Assembly (NCBI GenBank): GCA_963718895.1
Contig: CAVRAG010000007.1
Location: forward strand, 672,001 to 736,000
DNA length: 64,000 nt
Direction of reading: 5' to 3'
Source of the DNA: an uncultured Nitrososphaerota archaeon
GTDB taxonomy: Archaea > Thermoproteota > Nitrososphaeria > Nitrososphaerales > Gagatemarchaeaceae
Positions 49,451 through 63,577 of this stretch are shown one piece after another (position 1 is the first letter of the stretch; the number at the start of each line of letters is the position of its first letter). Position numbers and translations under genes: made by a program. The notes beneath the pieces were generated by a model. The model worked only from the letters and a program-made list of their open reading frames with translations. It did no database searches and was not told the DNA's origin.

Positions 49451-50662
49451 CTATCTTCGCGAACGCGAACCTTTCTCTTTCAGTCTGTTGTATGCCTGGT
49501 TGACACGGCGAAGCGTTGAGGCGTCTGTCGTCCCGTTCGCGACTTCCACATAGACCTTCGCGACCTTGTCAGGATTCTGAGGGTCTCTCCGGAGGACCCT
49601 GCCGAGGCGCTGTTCCGTCCTCGTCAGGCTTCCCGTGTTCGCCATGATGATCTCCCTGCTCGCGTTGGGGACGTTGAACCCGACCTCGAGAGTCCCGACC
49701 GACAGGAGGACGTTGTAGTCCCTGCCAAACCCGTCGACGATCTTCTGCCTCTTCGCCCTGTCGTTTAGCTCGTGGGTGATCATCCTGGCGTGTATCCCCT
49801 TCTCCTCCAGCCTGGCCCTGAGAGTCTCGATGCTCTGGATGGAGAGCGAGAAGACGAGGGTCGGGGCGGAGGGGTCGTTCTCGATTATCTCCAGGGTCCT
49901 CTCCAACTTGGGCGCGGTGTTCGACAGCAGCTGGTTGATCTTCTGCTTCACTATGTGCGCGGCGGTCTGGCCGTAGCGGCCCCTCGCCCTGAACGCCATC
50001 CTGCGGGCGTTGTTGTAGGCCGCCATCATCCTGAGATACTCGAGCATCTCGTCCCGGGGCAGGTCGACGTAGACGGGGATTATCTCCGCCTGAGCCAGCA
50101 TGTGTTTGTCCCTCGCCTGGGCTATGGTCGATTCGAAGACCACGGGGAGTGCCTGCGCCAGCTCGGGGTTCTTCCTCGCCGCCTCGGCGAGCGTCCCGGT
50201 CATCCCGAGCACGTAGCGCGTGGCCGCAGTCTTGCCGAGCAGGTCCGCATACCCCTGCACCAGGAATTGCTCTTCGTCGAACACGACCAGGTCGAAGTCC
50301 CTGATGAGCTGCGGATTGGCGCCGAGCGACTGGTACAAGGTGAGGGTTATCGGGTGCTTGGGTGTCTTCAGCTCCGAGTAGTACTGCCCGACGGTCTCAG
50401 AGGGGATTCCTATCTTCTCCATCTCCTTGAGCCAGGGGTTCTGTATCAGGACTATGCGCGGGACCACGATGAGGGTGTTCGGTCTTCCGAGGCGTTCCCA
50501 GATGGCAAGGGCCAGCAGGGTCTTGCCGATGCCCACGGGTGCCACGATGCTCGCGTGCCGGGTCGGAGAAGCGAGAAAATTCTCGATGGCCGTGTTCTGG
50601 ATCTCGTTCATGACCGGGAAGTTCAAGACGCGCTCGGAAGGAGAGGTCAATTCGCCCGACAC
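49451..50662 (-). CDS. SF2 helicase (XPB/Rad25-like)
   Basis: APVGIGKT, VVFDEEQ, LGMTGT, GFNVPNA and EQRLGRVLR; GTG start about 25 nt after TTAAAG. Confidence 0.88.
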   Translation of the reverse strand: MSGELTSPSERVLNFPVMNEIQNTAIENFLASPTRHASIVAPVGIGKTLLALAIWERLGRPNTLIVVPRIVLIQNPWLKEMEKIGIPSETVGQYYSELKTPKHPITLTLYQSLGANPQLIRDFDLVVFDEEQFLVQGYADLLGKTAATRYVLGMTGTLAEAARKNPELAQALPVVFESTIAQARDKHMLAQAEIIPVYVDLPRDEMLEYLRMMAAYNNARRMAFRARGRYGQTAAHIVKQKINQLLSNTAPKLERTLEIIENDPSAPTLVFSLSIQSIETLRARLEEKGIHARMITHELNDRAKRQKIVDGFGRDYNVLLSVGTLEVGFNVPNASREIIMANTGSLTRTEQRLGRVLRRDPQNPDKVAKVYVEVANGTTDASTLRRVNQAYNRLKEKGSRSRR

Positions 50663-50801
50663 TTCCCAGCCCAGGAACTCGTTCCCTTTAACTCGTCGAA
50701 CCGGCTCACGCCGGCCCTCTTCATTGGTTACCGTGGTCAGGGAGGGGGGCAAGCAAGGAGCTGCAGCACTCGTTAAATAGACATGACGCAACTTCAATCC
50801 C

Positions 50802-51098
50802 ATGAGCACGGCGGACAAGGTAAACAAGAGCGTGAGAGACACGATCAAGAGCGCGGAGGAGTTCATCGAAAGCACTAAGAAGTCTTTGCAGGTGGAACTC
50901 TCCAAGACGACGCCCAAGATAGAGCATTCGTTGGATCAATCGCTGGACCAAGCAGGGCAGGCGCTTACGAAGGCTCTAAAGTCCGTCGAGAAGAAGACGA
51001 GTCGCGAGCAGCTTCAGGTGCTGAACGGATACAGAACATTCCTGCAGGGACAGATCGCGTTCGTCGACGACAGAATCAAGGCGATAAAGAAGAGCTGA
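50802..51098 (+). CDS. Small coiled-coil hypothetical protein
   Basis: Amphipathic helical ORF; TTAAATA about 25 nt upstream. Confidence 0.8.
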   Translation: MSTADKVNKSVRDTIKSAEEFIESTKKSLQVELSKTTPKIEHSLDQSLDQAGQALTKALKSVEKKTSREQLQVLNGYRTFLQGQIAFVDDRIKAIKKS

Positions 51099-52220: not shown

Positions 52221-52307
52221 ACCCCCTCCGAAGCCCGCTACGCTTCTTAAGGACGATAGAACTTTCTTACGAATGATGGGAAGAGCTTGAGGCTTGTTGG
52301 AGATTCG

Positions 52308-53049
52308 CTACTTGGCCTGAGCAGGTTCGGGCACGGGACTCGTATAGAGGAAGATCTTCCCCACCACGCTCTCTCCTTCCCTGGCGGCGAGCCTGGACGA
52401 GGCCACGTTGGATTCGGCTATCTCGTTGATCAGGGTGTGGACCTTCCTCGACTTGAGGTAGATGAGCCGGGCCTGGAAGTTGTCCCTCATTATCCCCATT
52501 CTCCTGAACCTACGGCTCGACGTAGAGGCCGTGCGACCTCGCCACTCCGCCGACGATGCTCATCCAAGCGATGGCTACGATCCTGTTCTCTAGCTTGACG
52601 ACGAAGCACTTGTCGCCGTTCCTGAGGGCGACCCCGACCCACCCCAGGTTGGTCTCGGGCTGCGTGGCGGCCATGAAGTGCTCTATCTCCCCGGCGTTGT
52701 CGTCTATGCTCACCTGATACCTGAACCTGTGCTCCACCTTGGCCTTGTCGACGTCGAGCTTCCAGATGTTCCAGACTTCTTTGGGGAGCTCTGGCATCTC
52801 GAGCTCTGAGAAGATGTAGCTGGAGGGCTTGAGCCGGTAGAAGTGGTCGAAGACCTCCCTCGATTTCGTGAAGATTGTTCCGGTGGCCTCGTACTCGTCG
52901 TAGATGAATAGGCCGTTCACACCTCCAGTGGCGTCTCTGGAGACGAAGACCTCCCCGCCCACTTCCAGCTCCTCCTTGGCCTCATGATGGAGGATCGGGT
53001 CGAAGAAGGAGAGGCCCTTTGGCAGGTCCAGCTCGCCGACCGTTTTCAC
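52308..53049 (-). CDS. GNAT family N-acetyltransferase, frameshift near 52512
   Basis: HGLYVEP joins RFRRMGIM (acetyl-CoA motif A) across a one-base insertion; NVASSRL..REG motif B. Confidence 0.8.
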
Positions 53050-53126
53050 GCTGGATGCGTCGGGCGTTGTCGCTCATCGGCCCCGGTACCTCTCTATCTG
53101 TTCGCTTGCGCACGACATTCCCATGG

Positions 53127-54359
53127 TCACCAATCGAGAATCGTGAACTCCTTGGTCAGTCTCTCCTCTCCGAGTATGTTGCCTATGACCAGCTCGAGGC
53201 TCTCGGGCCGACGCCGGAGACCGACGACCTGGTCGTCCCTGAGGGCGTCCCTCAGGAGGTACTCGAACTGCGTCTTGCGGTCGGTCGGACGTCCGAACCT
53301 CTTGACCCGCTCCCTCTCTATCTGTTCGTAGGCGTACATGAACTCGTAGAGCGACCGGTAGATCTGGTGCTCCATGTTCTCCTCGAGGTTGAACTCCAGC
53401 TCCGAGCGGTCCCTCCCGCCGATGGTTATCTCCTGGAGCCCCTCCAAGTCAGCCCAGAATATGGTGCCGTCCGGGGCGAGACACTGCGTCCTTGTCGAGC
53501 CAGACGTCGTAAAAGTCGAGCCCGCTGTAGGTGCCGTTGCCGTTGTCTCTCATCGACCTGACGAAGAGAGTGAGGATGGCGATTCCGCTCTTGACGAAGT
53601 TCCGAAGGAAGGACATCGCCTTCTCGTCGCTGTCCAGGCGGAAGAAGTCGAAGAGCTCCCCGGTGTCGTCCCCGATGGTCCAGTCCGAGTGGAAGTATAT
53701 CCTGACGTTGGACGGGATCAGCCTCGCCTCCTGGACCATCTCCTGCTTGAACTTCCTGTACCAGTAGACCTGGACCACCTCGTCCTGTAGCGTCTTGGGC
53801 AGCTTGACTATCTTCACCAGGGGAGCGATCCTGAAGCCGTGGATGGAGGTGGTGCTCGCGTCAGACATCTCGGCCGCCTTCATTGCGATGGTCGCGAACT
53901 CGAGCCCCTGGGATCCGTAGGGGCAGCCCCTCGACCACAGCTCGCCGGTGAGGTACCGTGGGAACCTGCATCTCCTTCTCCCTAGAGTTGAGTATCCTGT
54001 CCCTGACTTCGCCGTTCTTGAGGAGGCCGCAGACCTCCTCCCTCTTGAAGAGCTGGCGGCTGAACGGGCTGGTAGTCGAGCCTATCCCCTTCACAGAGAA
54101 GTAGAAGTCGGTCCCGTCTATGGTCACGCTACGGACGCCTGTCGACCGCGCTCCTGTTGTCGTCGATGAGGAGCTCCCTGCTGCCCACCGGGCCTGCATT
54201 TGGTGAAGGGCTTGACACTCTCGGGGAGGTAGACCTTGTCGAACCCAGGCATCTCGAGAGATCGAAGTGTCTGTTCGTGATCGTGCCGGCGCCTTCGTAT
54301 ACATCGAGAGTGATGGGCACCCCCCTCAGCTCGATGTCTGCGGCCTTGGTCATTCGCAC
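53127..54359 (-). CDS. SelO-like protein-kinase-fold protein, split by about five frameshifts
   Basis: Reconstruction gives SVKGIGSTTSPFSR, EARLIPSNVRI and DVWLDKDAV(L)APDGTIFWADLE. Confidence 0.6.
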
Positions 54360-54387
54360 TGTCAGGTCTTTCCACTCTACCCAGCTG

Positions 54388-55470
54388 CTACTGCCTCGGA
54401 GCCCCGCAGTAGGGGCATCTGTCTGCGGTCGTTGGAATCAGGGTGCCGCAGTACCTGCAATTCGTCTTCGCGACTTCCCTTATCACGACCTGCTCAGGTG
54501 GGTTCGAGCCGAGGTTTACTCCCGATTGCCATGATTGTGGTGGGGGGACCGAGGGAGGCGGAACGGATGGAGGGGCTGGAGGGATCGAGGATGGAGTGGG
54601 GGAGTGCTCTGGAAGCCTCTCCTTCCTGCGCCTGGACCGTGCACCCGCGTAGGCCAGCGCGAGGACCACCACGACCGCAGCCAGCGCGATATACCCAAGG
54701 TCGGTGTAAGAGAGGCCGAGCGGCAGGCCAGTGCCCGAGGTCGTGGGTGGCGGCGTGCTGGCGGTCGCCAGCGGGTAGCTCGCGGTGGTCACGTAGAGGT
54801 CGTCGGTGTAGGTGAAGCTCCCCGACCTGACCCTGGTACTGCCCGTTGTCCTGCTCCACGTAGTTGTAGCCTACGATGAACCCGGTCGCCGGGTCGAAGT
54901 ATTCGTCCCAGGTGTAGGACGCAGAGAAGACACCATAGGAGTCGTTCCGCTGGTACAGGCCCGTGCCCCTCACGTGGATGGTCTGGACGTACTGGTTCTC
55001 CGTAGGGAGCTGGAAGCTGTAGTTCTTCGAGAGCACGGTCATCTGCGTGTTCAGGGAGAAGAAGGGATTCCCGGCGGGAACGGCGGGGTCCATCGCGAAC
55101 CAGACGAAGATAGGTGCAGAGTACCCGACCTGGTTGTCGGTCCCGTTGACGTAGGTGAAGTTCTCGGACGACCACGTGAACGGGCCGGAGTACGAGTTTG
55201 ACGAGGACGCCCCCTGGTTGCTGCTGTAGGTGAAGGAGAGGCCGTACTGGGCGGAGACTACCCCGCCGCTCGCCCCGGTCTCCTGCTCGTTCCCGCTCAC
55301 CTGGGTCTCGTCGGTGTACCCTGAGTACGAGCCCTTGCCGTTGTTGACGGTGATGGTCTCTGAATAGCTGAAGGAGTAGCCGTTCTGCGGAACCAGCGTG
55401 AGCGCTCATGGCCATCGTGCCAAGCAGCAGGATCGCGAGCAGCGGCAGCGACCGCCGCCCTTTTGTTCAA
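54388..55470 (-). CDS. Secreted/membrane-anchored protein with a cytoplasmic Pro-rich linker and zinc ribbon, frameshifted
   Basis: Signal peptide, Tyr/Ser/Thr-rich beta domain, TM, PPPS repeats and CRYC..CPYC; TTG start overlaps the upstream TGA. Confidence 0.75.
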
Positions 55471-57038
55471 CCGGCGAACCCTCCGATTCCGTGGCTGTGA
55501 GCCGGATGGAAGCCGCCCATCCCGCTGAAGGTCGCGTTGTAGGACGAGTGAGCCACTATCACAGGGAAGTTCCACCAGAAGAAGCCAGGATAGGGGCCGT
55601 ATGTGAACTGTACGGGGGTGTCCGTCAGGCTCGCCGTCGAGTCTAACTCCTTCACGATCTCGTTTCTCACTCCGTGGATCATCCTGACCGCGAGGGCGAC
55701 GACCTGTGAACGTTCCAGCCCTCCCACGTAACTCGAGAGCAGCGTGACCGCCTTCTCCATCAGGTCGAGGACCTCGTGGGACTCGAAGACGGGTATCGAC
55801 GACAGCACGGCCGCAGCCACAAGAGGATACTCCAGGTATGTCCTCAGCTGTTCCAGCACGCTCTTCAGCTTCTCCTGGACCTCGTCGGCATCGAGCTCGC
55901 CTATAGCCAGGAAGGCCGACGATATCTCGGTGTCCTCGGACTTCATGAACCCCCAGGAGCTGAAGAGGGCCCTGAACGACTCGAACTTGATGACGAGGTC
56001 GTCGTAGGGGAGGTTCATCACGCCGAGTATCGCCGCCGCGTCGTACGACGAAGTGATCTGGGTGAACTTGATGAGGTTGTCCACCGGATAGGTCCCATCG
56101 TACCTCCTGCCCGCCATCACCGTCGCTGCGACGCCGGCTGACAGCTCCTTTGGGACCCCGTGCTTCCTTATCTCCTCGTCGAGGCTCTTCAGGACCTTCT
56201 CGAGGCTCGCGACCTCCGGGCTGGCGAGCGCCGTGAGTATCTCGGCAGCCATCAGGCTGTTCGTAGTCGTGGAGTGGAGGCCGTGGATGAGGTCGATCGC
56301 CTGGACGACCCTCTGTCCGATCTGCTGGGGGTCTCCCTGGAGCTTGCCCAGGCCCAGCGCCGTTCCCCAGAGCAACGGAGTGCCCCACTCCGGTTCGAGC
56401 TCCAGTGGGTGCTCCTTGTCCGCAATCTCCGGGAGCTTGGCCCTGATGAGGGGCACGTAGAAGCTGGCCCGGTTCGCTATCGAACGGAGCTCGGCGTACA
56501 TCGCCTTGTTCTCGTTCACAAAGTCCGGGAACTCTTCGTCGGCGACCCGGTAGTTCCTCACGTCGAGGTCGTTCAGAATCACGGTCCCGAGCGTCGTGAG
56601 CGAGATGTATCCGCCGCCGTACGCCGCCATGCGGTCGATCAGAGACTTCTCCTGGAGTAGCGCGTTCAGGTTGCCCTCCATCTGCGTCAGCTTGGCGCTC
56701 TCCTCGGCTGCGGTTGCGGTCTCTGCCTGGATCTTCTCCTGCATTGCCTCCTTCTCGTCCTTCGGCGCAAAGTGGAACTTGAACGAGTGCTGCCTGTCCT
56801 GGTCCTGGCCGACGGCACTCTCCGCAATCTCCGCCTGCGGCTTCTCGGCGGCGACATCCATGGCGAGTTGCGAGAGTCTCGATACCTCGGCGACCCCCTT
56901 GTCGTAGTCCTCCTTGCTCGTGCTCATGACATAGCCGTTGGCCGAGAGATACCCTAGGTCGGCGGGAGGGATTGGCGAGATTGGCTGCTTGAGGTAGTTG
57001 ACCTCGGAAAGGAACTCCCTGACTTCGCTACACTTCAA
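55467..57038 (-). CDS. Hypothetical 523-aa protein (coiled coil, helical domain, Gly/His/aromatic tail)
   Basis: Long intact ORF; CTTAAG about 30 nt upstream. Confidence 0.85.
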   Translation of the reverse strand: MKCSEVREFLSEVNYLKQPISPIPPADLGYLSANGYVMSTSKEDYDKGVAEVSRLSQLAMDVAAEKPQAEIAESAVGQDQDRQHSFKFHFAPKDEKEAMQEKIQAETATAAEESAKLTQMEGNLNALLQEKSLIDRMAAYGGGYISLTTLGTVILNDLDVRNYRVADEEFPDFVNENKAMYAELRSIANRASFYVPLIRAKLPEIADKEHPLELEPEWGTPLLWGTALGLGKLQGDPQQIGQRVVQAIDLIHGLHSTTTNSLMAAEILTALASPEVASLEKVLKSLDEEIRKHGVPKELSAGVAATVMAGRRYDGTYPVDNLIKFTQITSSYDAAAILGVMNLPYDDLVIKFESFRALFSSWGFMKSEDTEISSAFLAIGELDADEVQEKLKSVLEQLRTYLEYPLVAAAVLSSIPVFESHEVLDLMEKAVTLLSSYVGGLERSQVVALAVRMIHGVRNEIVKELDSTASLTDTPVQFTYGPYPGFFWWNFPVIVAHSSYNATFSGMGGFHPAHSHGIGGFAG

Positions 57039-57512: not shown

Positions 57513-59072
57513 TTGGCAACTGCTCGGAAGCCGAAGCAGAAACCTAAGGTCAAGAGCAAAATCTCAAGGTCCGACGTCCTTGCACCTGTTCCCACGAAGA
57601 TCAATAGGAGACAGGCCATTAGCACGGTTGGAAAGGTCGCCATAGCCGCCGGCGCGGTCATAGTGATTGGCGGAGTTGCGTATTATGTGAGCAGTAGCTC
57701 GAACAACACACCAACTTCCACCTCGACTCCTATGACCTCGAGCACAACGTCCGTTGCTTCTTCAACAAGCACTACATCCCAAGTCGCTTCAACAAGCGCT
57801 GCTTCTAGCTTTCCGTCGGTGATAACCATTGGTGCCCCATTTCCACTCTCTGGCGCCGAGGCAAGCATAGGAAATGACAGCAAGACCATGGTGAACCTGT
57901 ACGTTAACTACATCAACAACAATGGTGGGATAAAATCCATGAATGGCGCAAAGTTAAACGTCGTCTTTGTGGACAATCAAGGGGACCCCAACGTGGGGGT
58001 CACGGAAACGGAGGTCCTGATCAACCAGAACAAGGTTTCGGCGCTTCAGAACGGCTTCCTGAGCGGGGTTGTCCTCACCGAGAGCCAAGTGTCAGAGAAC
58101 GCCGGCGTGCCTATGGTCACTGGATCCTCATCGAATCCCTCGTTGACGCAGAGAGGCTACTCGCACTTCTTCAGGTGCTGGATGGCGGACAACGTACTCG
58201 CGGCGCAGCAGGTTGCCTTCTTGCAGACGATGATGGCTGCGAATCCGTCCGTAACGGTAAAGAACGTCGCCATCCTGAATGACAATACCCTGTTCGGAAC
58301 CGGAGTCGGGTCATATGTCGAGCAGGCCATTGGGGCGCTCGCGGGAAGCCCGTTCAACATCGTAGCTAACATCACTTATCCTGCTAATCCGGCCGATATG
58401 ACGAGCGAAGTAGAGCAACTTGCGAGCGCTAACGCCGACGTGCTCTTCACAGGCATAAGCTCAACAGGAGATGCCATCTTGTCCCAGGAGACCTTTAAGA
58501 AGTATAACGTGGACTTCAAGGCCACGTTCAGCGCTTCTGGGCACATCAACCCTCCCTATCTGGCGATAGGGACCGACGCATACTACCCCATCTGCAGAGT
58601 GCCGTGGTCGACCGACCTGCTCGTAACGAAGCCGTGGGAACAGCAGTGGGCTACCATGTTCCAGCAAGCTTCAGGCGGGACCCAATTCTACACCTATCCC
58701 GCCGACAGCTGGACCTGCCTCAACGTCATCCGAAACGCCCTGGAGACCGCAGCCAGTGCCGATCCCGAAAAGATAACGGCCGCGCTCAAAGCGACAAACC
58801 TCGGACCAGACGACTGCATGGAGGGTTACTCCGGCGTAAAGTTTGACGCCACCGGGCAGAACACTCTCGCCGTCCCGCTTCACGTGCAGCTAATGCCCGA
58901 CCAACTCTGGCACGTGGTGTCTCCGGCCAATATCGCAAGCTATCAGTACGTCTTCCCACAGCCGACTTGGAAACAGCGGGCAGCAGGACAATGGCCGCCG
59001 ATGGTCACCGTCAACGGGTACACCGAGACCAACACCGAAGTCCTCACAACCACGTCGAGTTCCCACTCCTAG
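57513..59072 (+). CDS. Branched-chain amino acid-type ABC transporter substrate-binding protein
   Basis: RR motif plus TM, S/T linker, IGAPFPLSG and INNNGGI motifs. Confidence 0.9.
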   Translation: MATARKPKQKPKVKSKISRSDVLAPVPTKINRRQAISTVGKVAIAAGAVIVIGGVAYYVSSSSNNTPTSTSTPMTSSTTSVASSTSTTSQVASTSAASSFPSVITIGAPFPLSGAEASIGNDSKTMVNLYVNYINNNGGIKSMNGAKLNVVFVDNQGDPNVGVTETEVLINQNKVSALQNGFLSGVVLTESQVSENAGVPMVTGSSSNPSLTQRGYSHFFRCWMADNVLAAQQVAFLQTMMAANPSVTVKNVAILNDNTLFGTGVGSYVEQAIGALAGSPFNIVANITYPANPADMTSEVEQLASANADVLFTGISSTGDAILSQETFKKYNVDFKATFSASGHINPPYLAIGTDAYYPICRVPWSTDLLVTKPWEQQWATMFQQASGGTQFYTYPADSWTCLNVIRNALETAASADPEKITAALKATNLGPDDCMEGYSGVKFDATGQNTLAVPLHVQLMPDQLWHVVSPANIASYQYVFPQPTWKQRAAGQWPPMVTVNGYTETNTEVLTTTSSSHS

Positions 59073-59099
59073 TCCCCGGCAAGGCAGGGCCTGGAGCAA

Positions 59100-59978
59100 A
59101 TGGTCGAACTAGTCGCTCTGCTGAACGTAACCCTGAGCGGCTTGTTCGTAGGTTCGGTTTATTCTCTGATCAGCATGGGCCTCACCCTCATCTGGGGGAC
59201 TTTGCGTGTTGTCAACTTCGCCCACGGCGCTCTGATGGCGTTCGCCATGTACGCGGCCTTTTGGTGTTGGTCGATTCTCGGTCTTGACCCCCTCGTGTCC
59301 ATCTTTCTCATCTTCCCTCTCATGTTCGCGATAGGCGTGGCAATAGAAGGGTCGTTGATCGCTCCAATCCTCAAAGCGGACGTAATGGCACAGCTCTTAC
59401 TCACCTTCGGTCTCATGCTGGTGATAACGAACGCCATGGCCTACTTCTGGTCCACGAACGAACGACTGATCATTCCCTGGTATGCATACAGGCTGTTCGA
59501 GTATTCAGGAGTCCTAATCGACGCACCCAGGGCGATAACGTTCGTCGCATCGGTCTCCTTCGCTGCCGGGCTCTACGTGTTCATGACGCGCACATCATGG
59601 GGATGGGCGATCAGGGCGACCGCGTTGGATAGGGAGGCGGCCGAGGCCTCCGGCATAAACGTCGCGACCATGTTCGCGATCGTCTTCGGACTCGGCACAG
59701 CGATGGCGGGTCTTGCGGGAGTCCTGGTCTCTACCTACTACCCTGTCACCCCGGACGCCGGGTCCAGCTTCCTGTACCTGGCCTTCGTTGCCGTCATCCT
59801 CGGCAGCCTCGGGAATTACATTGGAGCTTTGGTCGGCGGTTTGCTGTTGGGCGTTGTGGAAGCCCTGACCGCGTTTCTTTGGCTGGCCCAGCTCAGCCAA
59901 GCGGTGGCGTTTGCTCTGTTCATCATTATCCTGGTGTTCAGGCCTCAAGGACTCTTCGCAAAATCGCTGAGGTCCTAG
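59100..59978 (+). CDS. livH: BCAA ABC permease (LivH-like)
   Basis: GLTLIWG..VVNFAHG and GWAIRA motifs. Confidence 0.93.
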   Translation: MVELVALLNVTLSGLFVGSVYSLISMGLTLIWGTLRVVNFAHGALMAFAMYAAFWCWSILGLDPLVSIFLIFPLMFAIGVAIEGSLIAPILKADVMAQLLLTFGLMLVITNAMAYFWSTNERLIIPWYAYRLFEYSGVLIDAPRAITFVASVSFAAGLYVFMTRTSWGWAIRATALDREAAEASGINVATMFAIVFGLGTAMAGLAGVLVSTYYPVTPDAGSSFLYLAFVAVILGSLGNYIGALVGGLLLGVVEALTAFLWLAQLSQAVAFALFIIILVFRPQGLFAKSLRS

Positions 59979-59982
59979 ATTC

Positions 59983-60963
59983 GTGTACTCCGAGCGGACA
60001 CCCAGAAACCTGCTGAGATTGGTGGTGGCATTCGTGGTCGCAGCCGCCGTGCTGCCTGTGATCAACCCGCCTCTAGTCGTGATTGAGGTCCTCTTCGATG
60101 TCTTCCTTATAGCGATTCTGGCGACGTCTTGGAATCTGCTCGCAGGTTTTGCCGGACAGTTCAACTTTGGTCAGGCGGCGTACTTTGGAATCGGAGCGTA
60201 CTCGGCCGGTATTCTCTTCGAGTACTACGGGATTTCGCCGTGGGCCGCGATGGTAGTAGGGCCACTGCTGGCGGCGGGTCTATCCTGGGGAATTGGCTAT
60301 CCCCTGTTCAGGATGCGCGCGGACTACTACGCCCTGGCGACGCTCGCCCTCGCGGAGGTCCTCATGATAACCTTCTCCTCATGGAACTATGTGGGCGCGG
60401 CCTTCGGGCTCCAGTACCGGCCGGTACACTATTCGTGGATCTACTTCCAGTTCGACACGACCGTGATCCCCTACTACTACATCGGGCTCGCCCTTCTGGT
60501 AGGTGCACTCTTCCTCGCGAGAGCGGTCAGGACGTCCCATTTCGGGTTGAGACTCCTGGCTATACGAGACGACGAGGAGGCGGCCAAGTCTCTCGGAATA
60601 AACACTCTGCTGGAGAAGCAGAAGATTGCTGCGCTGAGCGCCGGTCTGGCCGCGGTTGGAGGCGTGCTGTACGCACAGTACACGCTCTATCTTAGTCCCA
60701 CCGCGACCATGTCCATAACTCAGACGGCCCAGATGATACTCCCGGCGGTGCTAGGTGGCATGGGGAGCATCTACGGCCCTCTCATCGGCGCGGCCGTCAC
60801 CGGGCCGATCTTCTGGTACTTCACGTTCTCCATAGGCAGCACCGTAGAGCTGTTGGCGAGGGGCGCGGCCCTCGTCGTAATCGTGCTGTTCATTCCGCGC
60901 GGGATTGTCCAAACGCTCATCGACAAGTTCGCTCGAGGGCCAAGGAAGGACGCGCGGAAATGA
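59983..60963 (+). CDS. livM: BCAA ABC permease (LivM-like)
   Basis: WNLLAGFAGQFNFGQAA, AIRDDEEAA and LGGMGS motifs. Confidence 0.93.
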   Translation: MYSERTPRNLLRLVVAFVVAAAVLPVINPPLVVIEVLFDVFLIAILATSWNLLAGFAGQFNFGQAAYFGIGAYSAGILFEYYGISPWAAMVVGPLLAAGLSWGIGYPLFRMRADYYALATLALAEVLMITFSSWNYVGAAFGLQYRPVHYSWIYFQFDTTVIPYYYIGLALLVGALFLARAVRTSHFGLRLLAIRDDEEAAKSLGINTLLEKQKIAALSAGLAAVGGVLYAQYTLYLSPTATMSITQTAQMILPAVLGGMGSIYGPLIGAAVTGPIFWYFTFSIGSTVELLARGAALVVIVLFIPRGIVQTLIDKFARGPRKDARK

Positions 60964-61676
60964 CACTCCTTCTCGTCAAGGGAATCTCGAAAGCATATGG
61001 GGGAGTCGTAGCCGTGGACGACGTGTCACTCCAGGTAGAGGAGGGGGAGATAGTTGCGTTGATTGGACCTAACGGATCAGGCAAGACCACCCTGGTCGAC
61101 ATGATTACGGGGTTCCTTTCAACGGACCGGGGGAGCGTGGTCTTCGACGGCAGGGAGATCGCAAAAATGCCGCCCGATAGGATTGCGAGGATTGGGCTCG
61201 TGAGAACCTTTCAGGTCTGCAGGCTTTTCGGTAGGATGACTGTCATCGAGAACCTGCAATCTGTGCCAGTGACGAAGGAGAGGTCGCCTGAGAGAGTGGA
61301 CCGCATCGAGGAGACGCTCGAGACGGTGCGCCTGAACCACCTTCGTGACGAGTACGCCGCCAACCTGTCAGGAGGACAGAAGAAGCTGCTCGAATTCGCC
61401 CGAATCCTCCAGCTCAATCCGAAACTGATTGTGATGGACGAGCCTTTCGCCGGGATGGACCCGTCCGTGATCGAAGACCTAGTGAAGCTCATCCAAGAGT
61501 TGCGAAACACGGGGATGTCCTTTCTCATAGTCGAGCACAACCTGGCAATAATCTCCAGACTCTGCAGACGAGCCATAGTGCTCGACGAAGGCGAGAAGAT
61601 CGCAGACGCGGACTACTCGACCGTGGTGAACGACCCACGAGTTGTGCAAGCCTACTTGGGAGCAAAGCGGAAATGA
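60960..61676 (+). CDS. livG: BCAA ABC ATPase (LivG-like)
   Basis: GPNGSGKT, RTFQ, DEP and VVQAYLG motifs. Confidence 0.93.
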   Translation: MTLLLVKGISKAYGGVVAVDDVSLQVEEGEIVALIGPNGSGKTTLVDMITGFLSTDRGSVVFDGREIAKMPPDRIARIGLVRTFQVCRLFGRMTVIENLQSVPVTKERSPERVDRIEETLETVRLNHLRDEYAANLSGGQKKLLEFARILQLNPKLIVMDEPFAGMDPSVIEDLVKLIQELRNTGMSFLIVEHNLAIISRLCRRAIVLDEGEKIADADYSTVVNDPRVVQAYLGAKRK

Positions 61677-62389
61677 GCCTGCAGGTCACCGACCTGGTGG
61701 CGGGATACGGCAAAGTCGAGATCGTCCACGGTGTGAATCTGACGGCGAAGGCCTCGAGCGTCACTGGAATAATAGGTCCCAATGGGTCGGGCAAATCGAC
61801 CATCTTGAAGACAATCGCCGGATACATCAAGCCCTGGAGAGGAGAAGTGCTATACGAGGGGCAGGACATCGGCGGCAGGAAGCCCCACACTCTGCTCAAG
61901 AGCGGTCTGGCGTACCTGATGCAACGAAGGAGCGCCTTTGCGGACCTGACGGTAGAACAGAACCTGAAGCTGGGAGAATGGATAATGCCACGGGAGAGGA
62001 CGAAGCTGAAATCAGCAATAGAGGACATGTACAACCTCTTCCCGAAGCTGCGGGAGCGCAGGAACACCCGTGCGGGCTCCCTGAGCGGAGGGGAGCAACG
62101 AATGGTCGAGCTCGCAAGGGCTCTCATCACCAGACCCAAGGTCCTTCTGATTGACGAGTTCTCGACCGGGCTGTCGCCGAAGGTCTACACAGAGCTCTAC
62201 GACAAGCTCCAAACCATCAGCAAAGATGAGCACATTACGATACTCGCCGTGGACCAGAACGTGGTGGAGATCGCGGAGGTGGCAGATTACATTTACGTCA
62301 TCAAGCTCGGCAACGTCGATACCGAGGGGCCTATTGACGACTTTCGGAGCAGGCTCGACGCCGTGGTGCAGAGCTGGCTCAAGGCCTAG
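61673..62389 (+). CDS. livF: BCAA ABC ATPase (LivF-like)
   Basis: GPNGSGKS, FPKLRER and LSGGEQ motifs. Confidence 0.93.
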   Translation: MSLQVTDLVAGYGKVEIVHGVNLTAKASSVTGIIGPNGSGKSTILKTIAGYIKPWRGEVLYEGQDIGGRKPHTLLKSGLAYLMQRRSAFADLTVEQNLKLGEWIMPRERTKLKSAIEDMYNLFPKLRERRNTRAGSLSGGEQRMVELARALITRPKVLLIDEFSTGLSPKVYTELYDKLQTISKDEHITILAVDQNVVEIAEVADYIYVIKLGNVDTEGPIDDFRSRLDAVVQSWLKA

Positions 62390-62563
62390 GTCGGATGCAT
62401 GCGAGCCTGGCTCCGGCTGCGAGGCGCCCTTCAGATTGCTCTCGGGCTTCAGTCCCATCGTTCGAGCGTCATCGGCGTTGGGATAGCCGCTTGGTCGGAA
62501 TTGGTGCGATAGGTTAGGAGTAGGAAGGCACTTTTTTAAACCGCCCCGCACACTCGCCACTTC

Positions 62564-63577
62564 ATGTCTCTCAAGTTCGGACTCGCGACTCCAAACGCCG
62601 CCGAAGGCATCATATTTGACGTGGGGTTCGTGGACCACAGGACCACGGTCGGCCTCTCGGTGGAGGCGGAGGCTCTCGGCTTCGATTCGGTGTGGACCAA
62701 CGACCACATCACGACGCAGAAGTACTTGAGGGAGTTCGTTAAGAGTCCGCCCAACCACTTCGACCCGCTTGTCACTCAGGCGTTCATCGCAGAGGCGACC
62801 AAGAAGATCAGGCTAGGCACAGCTGTGGTGGTGCTCCCCTATAGGAATCCGGTGATACTCGCGAAGCAGGTGGCCACTCTGGACAGGCTGTCCCGAGGGC
62901 GGCTGATTCTCGGGCTAGGCACCGGCGCATACAGGGAGGAGTTCGAGGCGATAAATCCGACGCTCAGGTACGAGGAGAGAGGGGATCTCATGGACGAGAG
63001 CGTCAGGGCCCTGAGGCTCCTTCTAACGAAAGCGAAGGCCAGTTTCAATGGGAAGTACGTCAAGTTTTCAGACGTGGAGATGTTCCCCAAGCCGAAGCAA
63101 CAGATCCTCCCGCTATGGATGGGAGGAAACTCCCCCCGCGTCATGAGGAGGGCCGGAGAGATGGGTGATGGCTGGCTGCCCGCCTGTCTGACGCCTAATG
63201 CGGTTCGGGAGGGTGCCTCCAAGATAAGAGGATACGCCCGGAAAGCGGGGAGGCTAGCCTCGCGCGTCGAGATCGCACCACAGTATCTCGTGCTTCTTGG
63301 CAAGACCCGAGAAGATGCTTCGAGGAAGTTCAGGAGAAGTCTTTCGTACAAGCACCTGGTCTCGCTTCAGAAGACCACCATGAAGGGGCAGTTGGCAGAA
63401 TCCTATGAAGCATCGAACCTCATCGGCACCCCCACCCAGGTCATCGAGCAAATAGATGCGCTGCAGAAGGCGGGTGTTTCCTACTTCTCGGCACTAGTCT
63501 TCATGTGCGAAGGCTACGGGGACTTCCTCCGACAGGCCAAGGTCTTCGCGAAAGAAGTCATACCGTCCTTCAGGTGA
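62564..63577 (+). CDS. LLM class (probably F420-dependent) oxidoreductase
   Basis: AEALGFDSVWTNDH, LAKQVATLDRLSRGR and GDGWLP motifs. Confidence 0.92.
   Translation: MSLKFGLATPNAAEGIIFDVGFVDHRTTVGLSVEAEALGFDSVWTNDHITTQKYLREFVKSPPNHFDPLVTQAFIAEATKKIRLGTAVVVLPYRNPVILAKQVATLDRLSRGRLILGLGTGAYREEFEAINPTLRYEERGDLMDESVRALRLLLTKAKASFNGKYVKFSDVEMFPKPKQQILPLWMGGNSPRVMRRAGEMGDGWLPACLTPNAVREGASKIRGYARKAGRLASRVEIAPQYLVLLGKTREDASRKFRRSLSYKHLVSLQKTTMKGQLAESYEASNLIGTPTQVIEQIDALQKAGVSYFSALVFMCEGYGDFLRQAKVFAKEVIPSFR

Follow-up and report, generated by a model that had tools for sequence, protein, structure and literature searches.

The minus strand of the window, the whole 64,000-nucleotide stretch that was analysed from an uncultured Nitrososphaerota archaeon, carries a gene (here called kin) that is real, intact in nature and about 411 aa in product length. 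We are highly confident that this product has a kinase-like fold with SelO as its nearest relative; kin founds a family that has no Pfam model and that, among proteins of solved structure, lies closest to the AMP/UMP-transferring pseudokinases SelO/YdiU. Together with its neighbours, kin quite likely belongs to a functionally linked module, composed of the following genes.

52308..53049, minus strand: two-part acetyltransferase, GNAT (tblastn; Pfam Acetyltransf_1; extra base near 52510-52513, absent in run X1)
53127..54359, minus strand: kin, gene for a SelO-like enzyme of protein-kinase-like fold (ORFs, translation, tblastn, intact orthologues, model and fold matches)
54388..55465 (start approximate), minus strand: membrane protein (ORFs; Zn_Ribbon_1, E 2.9e-5; tblastn)
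55467..57038, minus strand: p523, an intact helical protein of 523 aa (ORF, alignment, model)

The first-pass annotation had joined five minus-strand ORF pieces (54129-54359, 54124-54375, 53861-54304, 53449-53883 and 53127-53447) into a single protein of about 410 aa, and this reconstruction is borne out by intact orthologues of 411-412 aa in genomes of the same genus. In the window the frame of kin is split by five single-base indels and yields a product of about 410 aa when read through; by tblastn, positions 54365 to 53130 match residues 1-411 of an intact same-genus orthologue in three frames. The four motifs that had been listed all appear, and in the order given, when the minus strand is translated in three frames, namely SVKGIGSTTSPFSR, GFRIAPLV, EARLIPSNVRI and GLDFYDVWLDKDAV / APDGTIFWADLE, the last of which is divided between two frames. 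Of the 22 other genomes in the genus, 9 carry orthologues, at 78-88% identity and with open frames of 321-467 aa, which is far beyond chance. When the DNA was aligned with two orthologous loci, the five single-base events inside kin fell as follows.

54260, minus strand: one base probably missing from the assembly (alignment to the DNA of L002 and L007; the X3 contig stops at 54261)
54197..54201, minus strand: A run with one spurious base too many (insertion at 54201 in the alignment; base absent at 54197 in run X3)
54129..54131, minus strand: spurious extra base (insertion at 54129 in the alignment; runs X2 and X3 lack it at 54131)
53968, minus strand: spurious extra base (insertion at 53968 in the alignment; base absent in run X2)
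53481, minus strand: probable extra base that splits DKDAV from APDG (DNA alignment; depth of independent contigs is zero at 53444-53547)

DNA alignment also reveals one single-base event in each neighbouring gene (52510 in the GNAT gene, 54823 in the zinc-ribbon gene) and, with the two orthologous loci, an intergenic insertion at 53060. Genome-wide, 28 of the 113 long orthologues tested are frame-split, 16 of 34 on the same contig, and short-read contigs obtained independently from soil and peat, at least 99% alike to the window, lack the extra base at six inferred sites, three of them in kin. From these widespread splits and these independent contigs we conclude that the breaks in kin stem from indel errors in an assembly of the long-read type, and the description of the enzyme as 'frameshift-hidden' has to be given up: the breaks are an artefact and not biology. 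The five frame changes fall within 1.2 kb, with the flanking 488-aa and 523-aa ORFs unbroken, as might be expected if this copy were a decaying pseudogene or subject to programmed frameshifting. However, both adjoining genes are broken as well, the host assembly comprises 11 contigs and is just 80.5% complete, and we know of no precedent for five separate programmed shifts within one gene. Given the genome-wide splits and the contigs without the extra bases, we rejected this explanation as extremely improbable.

The AlphaFold2 model of the enzyme reached a pLDDT of 92.9 and a pTM of 0.91. All top seven Foldseek matches of the model are YdiU (E 6e-5 to 2e-4), with TM-scores of just ~0.3, and in the structure comparison SelO and the NIS synthetases scored 3-6 Z units above every canonical kinase. 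The protein-kinase-like, SelO-like fold that had been proposed for the joined protein is thus supported, with SelO/YdiU as the best solved match. SelO structures align to the kin model over at most chain residues 6-346 of 460-478, so that the C-terminal third of SelO is without a counterpart in kin, and the model has an insert of its own between the Lys loop and E141 as well as a small C-terminal beta domain. In sequence-family searches, the SelO Pfam model (PF02696) matched neither of two intact kin orthologues at E values up to 1 nor any of 39 diverse family members at E values up to 0.1; among the same 39 members there was no match to Pfam kinase families at E 0.1 and none to IucA_IucC. The enzyme had no family match in Pfam, NCBIfam, PADLOC or PHROGs and no match to PDB sequences in single-sequence or profile searches, and the kin profile aligned to E. 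coli SelO alone gave just an irrelevant 59-column match (probability 3.7%). The idea of a divergent SelO-superfamily branch therefore holds in that SelO is the nearest structure, but not in the sense of membership in the SelO Pfam family. Judged by Pfam Pkinase, the HRD Asp and a Gly-rich loop before the beta-3 Lys, kin is not a canonical protein kinase either.

At the level of motifs, hhalign of the kin family profile with 10-11 SelO sequences (homologues from a plasmid collection) paired DDNRS with GDGRG, SVKGIG with HLKGAG and RLIPSNVR with RVAPSHLR, reproducing the lysine-loop and arginine-pair correspondence noticed in the first-pass annotation. The profile-profile score is weak (29.4; P 0.008, hhalign probability 4.9%), compared with a mean of 18.6 (sd 3.0, maximum 27.7) for 60 block-shuffled controls and 17.4 for a reversed control. 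In SelO, according to a review, the gamma-phosphate of the flipped ATP is bound by a Lys (K113 in P. syringae) and by a pair of Arg with a spacing of seven residues (R176/R183) (PMC8097203). In kin, the sequence contains the SelO-type KGxG lysine (K92) and the arginine pair (R214/R221). Among homologues that cover the core and range down to ~30% identity, 151/151 keep a set of 15 putative active-site and motif residues, namely R71, K92, G93, G95, E141, G150, R214, P217, S218, R221, D290, K291, D292, G299 and D305. The altered catalytic loop that had been suggested for the enzyme stands in part: going by motif order, the position of the canonical catalytic-loop Asp appears to be taken by a valine (V287, in 145/151 homologues) adjoining the invariant D286, but the catalytic-loop motifs of kin and SelO were left unpaired by hhalign. 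D292 would correspond to the metal-binding Asn and D305 to the DFG Asp, a mapping that draws on motif order, spacing and secondary structure rather than on residue-level superposition.

These residues bear on two further readings of the enzyme. An ordinary phosphotransferase, acting as a kinase on proteins or small molecules by means of an unusual catalytic loop, would make use of the conserved Lys and Asp...Asp, and the invariant D286/D290-K291-D292 cluster could supply its base, with D286 a possible base for phosphoryl transfer. We consider such a kinase unlikely, as the lead of SelO and NIS synthetases over every canonical kinase, the presence and invariance of the SelO-type arginine pair and the lack of Pfam kinase matches in the 39 members all argue against it. 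The loss of the canonical catalytic Asp at its inferred position, together with the frequent use of atypical kinase-fold proteins as scaffolds, would also suit a non-catalytic pseudokinase that scaffolds the sensor-GNAT. This we regard as very unlikely, because the invariance of all 15 residues, among them the Lys, the two Arg and the two putative metal-site Asp, is a pattern typical of catalysis.

The GNAT predicted directly downstream was confirmed as a two-domain protein, with an N-terminal domain of ~125 aa without a recognised fold followed by the C-terminal GNAT. Intact orthologues match Acetyltransf_1 with 32.2 and 32.6 bits (cut-off 20.7; E 1.5e-7 at 32.2), and the acetyl-CoA-type motif FRRxGIG, of the RRxGIG type, is conserved in the alignment. 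The membrane protein consists, in order, of a signal/anchor helix, a conserved ectodomain of ~200 aa, a TM helix, an Arg cluster, a Pro-rich linker and a C-terminal zinc ribbon; an additional base near 54823 (the one at 54824 is absent in run X4) interrupts its gene, which probably has a second frame change near 55395-55400. The model of p523 shows a coiled-coil hairpin and helical repeats, and gives the conserved tail, which ends in ...HPAHSHGIGGFAG, as disordered. Helical proteins measure 470-555 aa across loci and their tail is kept in distant systems as well: a His-rich motif and then a C-terminal Gly occur in 26/26 tail-bearing sequences inspected (13/15 and 13/13), and 2/15 orthologues are without any tail. 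The flanking ORFs of 488 aa and 523 aa are unbroken.

Several lines of evidence point to functional linkage of these genes. First, of the 76 loci whose sequence runs on for 900 nt or more downstream of the enzyme, 75 hold the GNAT, and 73 of 80 related loci encode a homologue of the helical protein. Second, among 41 genomes the enzyme, the GNAT and the helical protein occur in matching sets of 10, 10 and 9, and the sole genome that misses the helical protein does so at a contig end. Third, the four-gene module (His-rich-tail helical protein, ectodomain-TM-zinc-ribbon protein, SelO-like enzyme and GNAT) recurs in Nitrososphaeria, Bathyarchaeia and Thermoplasmata, and in 51 distant homologues, placed on a FastTree tree, the ORF immediately upstream of the enzyme, 540-600 aa long, combines ectodomain, TM and GNAT in one protein (Acetyltransf_1, E 2.1e-13). 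Two database proteins that look like read-through or frame artefacts, P0145 (membrane protein with the enzyme N-terminus) and P0177 (enzyme C-terminus with the helical-protein N-terminus), were left out of the fusion count. The linkage of enzyme and GNAT that had been proposed is thus sustained and proves wider than first described: the unit is not a two-gene pair but has three or four components. The genes beyond the module are unrelated housekeeping genes, and no further conserved partner was seen among the flanking genes of distant loci. A pattern scan located the enzyme family at 206 or more sites in species-representative genomes of archaea and at 109 metagenome loci.

Fold similarity to SelO does not establish function, and the following mechanism is offered as a proposal. 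The enzyme would bind NTP in the 'flipped', SelO-like orientation, with K92 (supported by E141) and R214/R221 holding the beta- and gamma-phosphates and D292 and D305 holding the metal, and would pass a nucleotidyl (AMP/UMP) group to a protein partner with release of pyrophosphate. We lean slightly towards such alpha-phosphate chemistry over phosphorylation. The likeliest acceptor would be the helical protein, through its hydroxyl-rich tail, or else the GNAT or the sensor itself, the tail being a candidate that we hold only tentatively. The GNAT may then add or control a second, acetyl-CoA-dependent modification governed by the outside domain. For the explanation as a whole, from a real SelO-like gene and module up to and including nucleotidyl-transfer chemistry, we see the chances as evenly balanced.

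Alternatively, the enzyme might be a ligase similar to MceIJ, SidJ or the NIS synthetases. It would then adenylate a carboxylate, which could be that of a small acid or of a Glu/Asp side chain or the invariant C-terminal Gly of the helical protein, and the GNAT-fold partner would pass the acyl group to an amine or hydroxyl to give an amide or ester. MceIJ is ATP-dependent. MceJ/MchC, the only SelO-family member described as working with an acyltransferase, joins a peptide C-terminus to a siderophore (PMC3281104, PMC6071977). SidJ is a kinase-fold glutamylase, and every tail-bearing helical protein inspected ends in Gly after the His-rich motif. We nevertheless judge a ligase unlikely: the partner of the enzyme carries an RRxGIG-like motif and belongs with the classical GNATs of the acetyl-CoA type, not with HlyC-type acyltransferases, there are no microcin precursor, siderophore or exporter genes near the module, where the neighbours are housekeeping genes, and some helical-protein orthologues lack the tail. 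More specifically, the SelO-like enzyme might adenylate the Gly-terminated His-rich tail, on its C-terminal carboxylate or on a tail residue, and the sensor-tethered GNAT might resolve the adenylate onto an amine or hydroxyl, the machine being gated by the extracellular domain. This version is a long shot; if true, C-terminal activation of the ubiquitin-like or microcin type would gain a non-E1 counterpart in such a tail-adenylation machine.

SelO-type enzymes demonstrate that a kinase fold is able to transfer AMP in place of phosphate. Literature searches, which covered main texts outside subscription journals, returned no description of the enzyme family or the module. Kin represents a separate enzyme family, without a Pfam model, with SelO as its nearest fold and with an invariant putative active site. 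If its proposed chemistry is confirmed, it would constitute a new branch of nucleotidyl-transferring kinase-fold enzymes and a signalling or modification pathway in abundant, uncultured archaea of soil and peat. Moreover, frame-broken ORFs in long-read MAGs can conceal well-conserved genes.

Among known systems, SelO/YdiU (PF02696; 6EAC, 6K20, 6LNA, 9JYM) shares with the enzyme the xKGxG-loop Lys with a preceding D/G-x-N/G-R motif, the R-x-x-P-S-x-x-R arginine pair and, by the presumed mapping, a conserved Asp at the DFG-like position and a non-Asp residue at the HRD position. In contrast to SelO, the enzyme is ~70 residues shorter, has no SelO C-terminal region and ends in ...FTILDW without a C-terminal Cys/Sec motif; the metal-site Asn appears to be replaced by Asp292, the SelO metal ligands Asn253 and DFG-Asp262 being the presumed equivalents of D292 and D305. 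A sample of 201 genomes from the phylum of the host yielded no canonical SelO, and none turned up in the host genome (80.5% complete) or near bacterially labelled loci (0/2 and 0/61 neighbours); it has been reported as rare in archaea, in 3 of 107 genomes and in Euryarchaeota only (PMC3281104).

A protein-language-model search returned 'MchC protein' clusters as the nearest named neighbours (0.92; SelO Pfam on 35% of members), which we take as a lead only. MchC/MceJ is likewise a divergent SelO-family protein encoded beside an acyltransferase, and this SelO-subfamily member acts in complex with MchD/MceI (PMC3281104, PMC6071977), which offers a precedent for the main reading. MchD/MceI is, however, described there as a HlyC-type acyltransferase from an enterobacterial microcin/exporter cluster (PMC3281104), whereas our enzyme is archaeal and has as its partner an Acetyltransf_1 GNAT that is coupled to a membrane sensor. 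NIS synthetases (IucA/IucC, AcsD, SbnC, DesD, DfoC), among which DfoC is an acetyltransferase-NIS fusion, are ~150 residues longer and have an extra N-terminal domain, their alignments begin at chain residue ~130-157, and the module is without siderophore context. Finally, the fused form resembles membrane-anchored sensors with an enzyme output in its order of signal/anchor, ectodomain, single TM and cytoplasmic enzyme, but here the output is a GNAT instead of a histidine kinase, cyclase or Ser/Thr kinase, and the kinase-fold enzyme stands apart from it as a soluble partner.

The enzyme gene is real, and the five ORF pieces that the first-pass annotation had joined were all recovered from the ORF list:

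54129-54359, minus strand, piece of the enzyme gene
54124-54375, minus strand, piece of the enzyme gene
53861-54304, minus strand, piece of the enzyme gene
53449-53883, minus strand, piece of the enzyme gene
53127-53447, minus strand, piece of the enzyme gene

Three-frame translation of the window shows the enzyme coding signal switching repeatedly among frames and contains every motif quoted in that annotation, in the order claimed. We searched 40 related genomes with the 144-aa enzyme piece: of the 22 from the same genus, 9 gave a match, at 78-88% identity and with open frames of 321-467 aa, and the 18 from other genera gave none. Two related loci hold intact orthologues:

L007:1021-2256, plus strand, intact enzyme orthologue, 411 aa
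L002:1156-2394, minus strand, intact enzyme orthologue, 412 aa

Both carry a zinc-ribbon membrane protein upstream of the enzyme and a 246-255-aa GNAT downstream, and in tblastn searches the intact proteins covered all three genes in the window, each in 2-3 frames. DNA alignment of the window with these two loci placed the underlying indels:

~54260, single-base deletion inside the enzyme gene
54201, 54129, 53968 and 53481, single-base insertions inside the enzyme gene
52510, single-base insertion in the GNAT gene
53060, single-base insertion, intergenic
54823, single-base insertion in the zinc-ribbon gene

As independent data we used Logan contigs from four public soil and peat runs, which cover parts of 52300-55400; 12 of the 19 placed contig pieces are at least 99% alike to the window. 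These contigs have one base fewer at 52513, 53060, 53968, 54131 (two runs), 54197 and 54824, coinciding with six of the eight inferred indel sites, all of them insertions, while 53481 and 54260 lie without contig cover. One of the matching runs may be the assembly's own sample, but even then an intact allele exists, a finding that counts against a remaining rival reading of these frame breaks, that the copy in the window is a pseudogene. A further frame change probably lies near 55395-55400, where the zinc-ribbon gene encodes its signal peptide: here the membrane protein's N-terminal signal/anchor segment reads in another frame than its ectodomain, and the loose ends of contigs from two of the runs (X1 and X4) fall at 55394, the margin of the compared stretch.

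Such breaks recur across the source assembly (3.13 Mb, 11 contigs, completeness 80.5%, contamination 5.4%). We compared 198 ORFs of at least 250 aa, taken from 400 kb of a single-contig genome of the same genus (G007), by tblastn with the whole assembly, counting matches as orthologue-like if the best piece was at least 55% identical. Of 113 such orthologues, 71 keep to a single frame along 90% or more of their length, 28 are frame-split (16 of 34 on contig C7, whose positions 672001-736000 make up the window) and 14 are otherwise incomplete. Examples of the split regions are:

C7:630367-637227, frame-split region of the source assembly
C7:786017-788205, frame-split region of the source assembly
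C8:68835-73144, frame-split region of the source assembly

Frame-splitting indels throughout the genome probably explain why an 11-contig assembly reaches only 80.5% completeness, and broken genes are to be expected in any ORF-based reading of the window. Of the "frameshift-hidden" gene first proposed, the single gene behind the breaks stands; the frameshifts are an artefact of assembly. The same four-gene module, likewise in frame pieces, occurs in a 20-contig, 54% complete genome of the genus (G022:C9:16075-20836), which suggests that its sequence suffers from errors of a similar type.

The enzyme belongs to a real and sizeable family, with 1300 proteins at E <=1e-3 in an index of 5.8 billion. 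Among the best 120 of these 1300, all are unnamed or "hypothetical", some labelled Nitrososphaerales archaeon; clustering at 50% condensed the output of an exhaustive search to 115 representatives, of which 86 have E <=1e-10. An intact orthologue had no significant match in Pfam (where the sole hit, P_C10 at E 0.05-0.1, falls short of its cut-off), NCBIfam, PADLOC or PHROGs, nor among PDB sequences, whether searched as a single sequence or as a profile, and none of 39 diverse family members matched kinase, SelO or IucA/IucC models at E 0.1.

Structure prediction was more informative. AlphaFold2, run with a 39-sequence alignment of the family, gave an enzyme model with pLDDT 92.9 and pTM 0.91, for which Foldseek returned seven PDB matches at E <=1e-3, all YdiU/SelO (E 6e-5 to 2.3e-4, probability 0.94-1.0, global TM-score only ~0.3), followed by NIS synthetases, the ROP5 pseudokinase, P. 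syringae SelO and kinases. SelO scored 3 Z units over the next family and ~6 over ordinary kinases, the latter margin counting against another remaining rival, that the enzyme is an ordinary kinase. On the strength of these two comparisons, the predicted fold is protein-kinase-like with SelO as its nearest solved relative, in agreement with the SelO-like fold first proposed; the claim that the enzyme is a SelO branch holds as to nearest fold, but the SelO family model is not matched. Neither the source assembly nor 201 sampled genomes of the phylum nor an additional 61 genomes yield a match to that canonical model, which does match in 4 of 14 control genomes. A protein-language-model search ranked unnamed archaeal clusters first and "MchC protein" clusters at rank 24 (score 0.92, 176 shared features), with the SelO Pfam family on 35% of their members; we treat this resemblance as a lead only.

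For residue-level comparison we aligned E. coli selO with ten homologues from a plasmid collection (Proteobacteria, Deinococcus, Bacteroidota, cyanobacteria and haloarchaea). Against this set, the family alignment scored 29.4 in hhalign (P 0.008, probability only 4.9%); 60 block-shuffled SelO alignments averaged 18.6 (sd 3.0, maximum 27.7) and the reversed alignment scored 17.4. The confident pairs, enzyme against SelO, are DDNRS/GDGRG, FSVKGIGSTTSPFSR/HLKGAGLTPYSR and RLIPSNVR/RVAPSHLR; at the sequence level the link to SelO is faint but coherent. As a review of SelO describes, K113 with E136, together with R176 and R183, holds the gamma-phosphate of the flipped ATP, Mg is held by N253 and D262, and the HRD Asp is absent (PMC8097203). 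Enzyme K92 and R214/R221 align with SelO's gamma-phosphate residues, the arginines likewise being seven residues apart. The SelO motif order first proposed is thus borne out by hhalign for the Lys loop and the Arg pair but not for the catalytic loop, for which its pairing was unreliable. Judged by motif order together with the secondary structure of the model, used in place of a superposition, DVWLDKD-strand-PDG-strand-DLEG would be the counterpart of SelO HGVMNTDN...DYG; V287 would then occupy the place of the HRD Asp, D292 that of the metal Asn and D305 that of the DFG Asp.

Across 151 core-covering homologues (from 77 of the 80 genome loci and 74 of the 80 metagenome loci), the SelO-like motif set is invariant: R71, K92, G93, G95, E141, G150, R214, P217, S218, R221, D290, K291, D292, G299 and D305 are kept in all 151, and position 287 carries V in 145 sequences and A in the other 6. 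Invariance of 15 residues down to ~30% overall identity argues for a catalytically active enzyme, as opposed to a scaffold, a further remaining rival, with which the putative loss of the HRD Asp might be reconciled.

When one genome per species was scanned with a sequence pattern, at least 206 sites proved to encode an enzyme relative, and the best 80 were analysed; their titles comprise Gagatemarchaeum/Nitrososphaerales, with some "Bathyarchaeota" labels (70-80% identity), Bathyarchaeia (54-65%) and Thermoplasmata (46-54%). The linkage of enzyme and GNAT across archaea was supported, with a GNAT homologue at 75 of 80 loci and, counting just the 76 that extend 900 nt or more downstream, at 75 of those; the five loci lacking it have at most 1462 nt of downstream sequence. 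The proposed two-gene pair proved too small a unit, as the system includes the zinc-ribbon membrane protein (71/80 loci) and a homologue of the intact 523-aa upstream ORF at 55467-57038, a helical protein (73/80). In one arrangement, that of the window, helical protein, membrane protein, enzyme and GNAT follow one another on one strand, with the GNAT at most 300 nt downstream in 33 of 76 loci; in another, enzyme, helical protein and membrane protein are separated by 5-nt gaps or 4-nt overlaps, with a convergent GNAT directly behind. Among 41 genomes, which are kin and so offer no statistical test, the enzyme occurs in 10, all of which also have the GNAT; 9 of them have the helical protein as well, the tenth locus being cut off by a contig end; the remaining 31 have none of the three. 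Two loci with bacterial record titles (Acidoferrum, Acidiferrales) have archaeal-type parts at 58-62% identity: L063 has enzyme, GNAT and helical protein with no zinc-ribbon match, whereas L060 is limited to enzyme and helical protein. The sampled genomes around one of these loci measure 0.8-2.3 Mb, and the titles may reflect mis-binning or mislabelling.

The membrane protein comprises a signal/anchor helix and a conserved ~200-aa ectodomain in which Tyr, Gly, Asp and Trp are abundant; a Ser/Thr linker leads to the TM helix, which is followed by an Arg cluster, a linker rich in Pro and a zinc ribbon with conserved CxxC...CxxC. The GNAT protein has the two-part build first described, a ~125-aa N-terminal domain of unknown fold preceding a GNAT with FRRxGIG. 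The helical protein is modelled as all-helical with a coiled-coil hairpin (pLDDT 77.3) and resembles no solved structures beyond generic coiled coils. Its last 67 residues fall below pLDDT 50, yet this tail is among the best-conserved parts: 13 of 15 orthologues end in PLIVAHSSYYSTFSGxGGxHPAHxHGxGGFxG, which is absent from two, and distant versions end in FHPVHxHYxYG or HHSSLHYHVIG, the His-rich motif and terminal Gly being kept in all 13 distant proteins inspected. At L062:2226-3644 and L078:2209-3627, 472-aa helical proteins end ahead of this tail, and the membrane protein there has a different, longer zinc-ribbon end.

The window also holds an intact 488-aa DEAD/DEAH-type helicase ORF (49451-50917, minus strand; ResIII and Helicase_C, E 3.5e-13 and 4.6e-12), which we leave out of the module because none of the 80 related loci has a homologue. 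On the plus strand at 57513-63577 lies a branched-chain-amino-acid-type ABC transporter operon (a Peripla_BP_6 binding protein, two BPD_transp_2 permeases and two ABC ATPases), followed by a luciferase-like monooxygenase gene, every gene in a single frame.

Distant members served as seeds for a metagenome scan, which yielded 109 relatives; 80 loci were retained. Profile HMMs of the four proteins detected the enzyme at all 80, a GNAT at 65, an ectodomain at 61 and a helical protein at 46, on contigs that are in many cases short. At most of these loci a single 540-600-aa ORF directly upstream of the enzyme combines the ectodomain part with the whole GNAT protein (Acetyltransf_1, E 2.1e-13), running from signal/anchor helix and ectodomain through a TM helix at ~240-280 to the GNAT N-domain and GNAT, without the zinc ribbon. 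Fusion, enzyme and helical protein are packed tightly in that order. In a FastTree phylogeny of 152 enzymes, 25 of them without known context, one split with support 1.0 parts 51/51 fusion-linked from 76/76 split-linked sequences. Flanking genes vary between loci; some are housekeeping genes of archaea, namely those for NAC, deoxyhypusine synthase, pyruvoyl arginine decarboxylase and F420 ligase. The module is thus conserved, with sensor and GNAT fused in distant versions; this fusion is strong evidence that membrane protein and GNAT form one functional unit, to which the constant neighbourhood ties the enzyme and helical protein. Two database proteins, P0145 (577 aa; membrane protein plus enzyme N-terminus) and P0177 (388 aa; enzyme C-terminus plus helical-protein N-terminus), are probably not true fusions but artefacts, from read-through or frame errors, of genes that lie close together.

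We propose that the enzyme would bind its nucleotide in a flipped orientation and perform alpha-phosphate chemistry, transferring AMP or UMP with release of pyrophosphate, because the features it retains are those SelO uses for such chemistry, both nearest structural families (SelO and NIS synthetases) attack the alpha-phosphate, and the canonical catalytic Asp is absent at its inferred position. The presence of an ectodomain in the membrane protein suggests extracellular control over the cytoplasmic enzymes. As candidate acceptors we rank protein hydroxyls first, the Ser/Tyr/Thr/His-rich tail of the helical protein being the first candidate, and second a carboxylate that might then undergo GNAT-assisted ligation, by analogy with MceJ-MceI and SidJ. 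MceJ, a SelO-subfamily protein, forms a complex with the acyltransferase MceI that attaches salmochelin to microcin E492 at its C-terminal serine (PMC3281104, PMC6071977); SidJ is a further precedent. For a three- or four-component module with a sensor-tethered GNAT, our literature search found no counterpart; an earlier mention is possible, since supplements and subscription journals lay outside its coverage. Compared with SelO, the enzyme is without the C-terminal third and the C-terminal Cys/Sec motif, and it constitutes a new family, unmatched by the SelO family model, in a known fold class whose nearest member is SelO.
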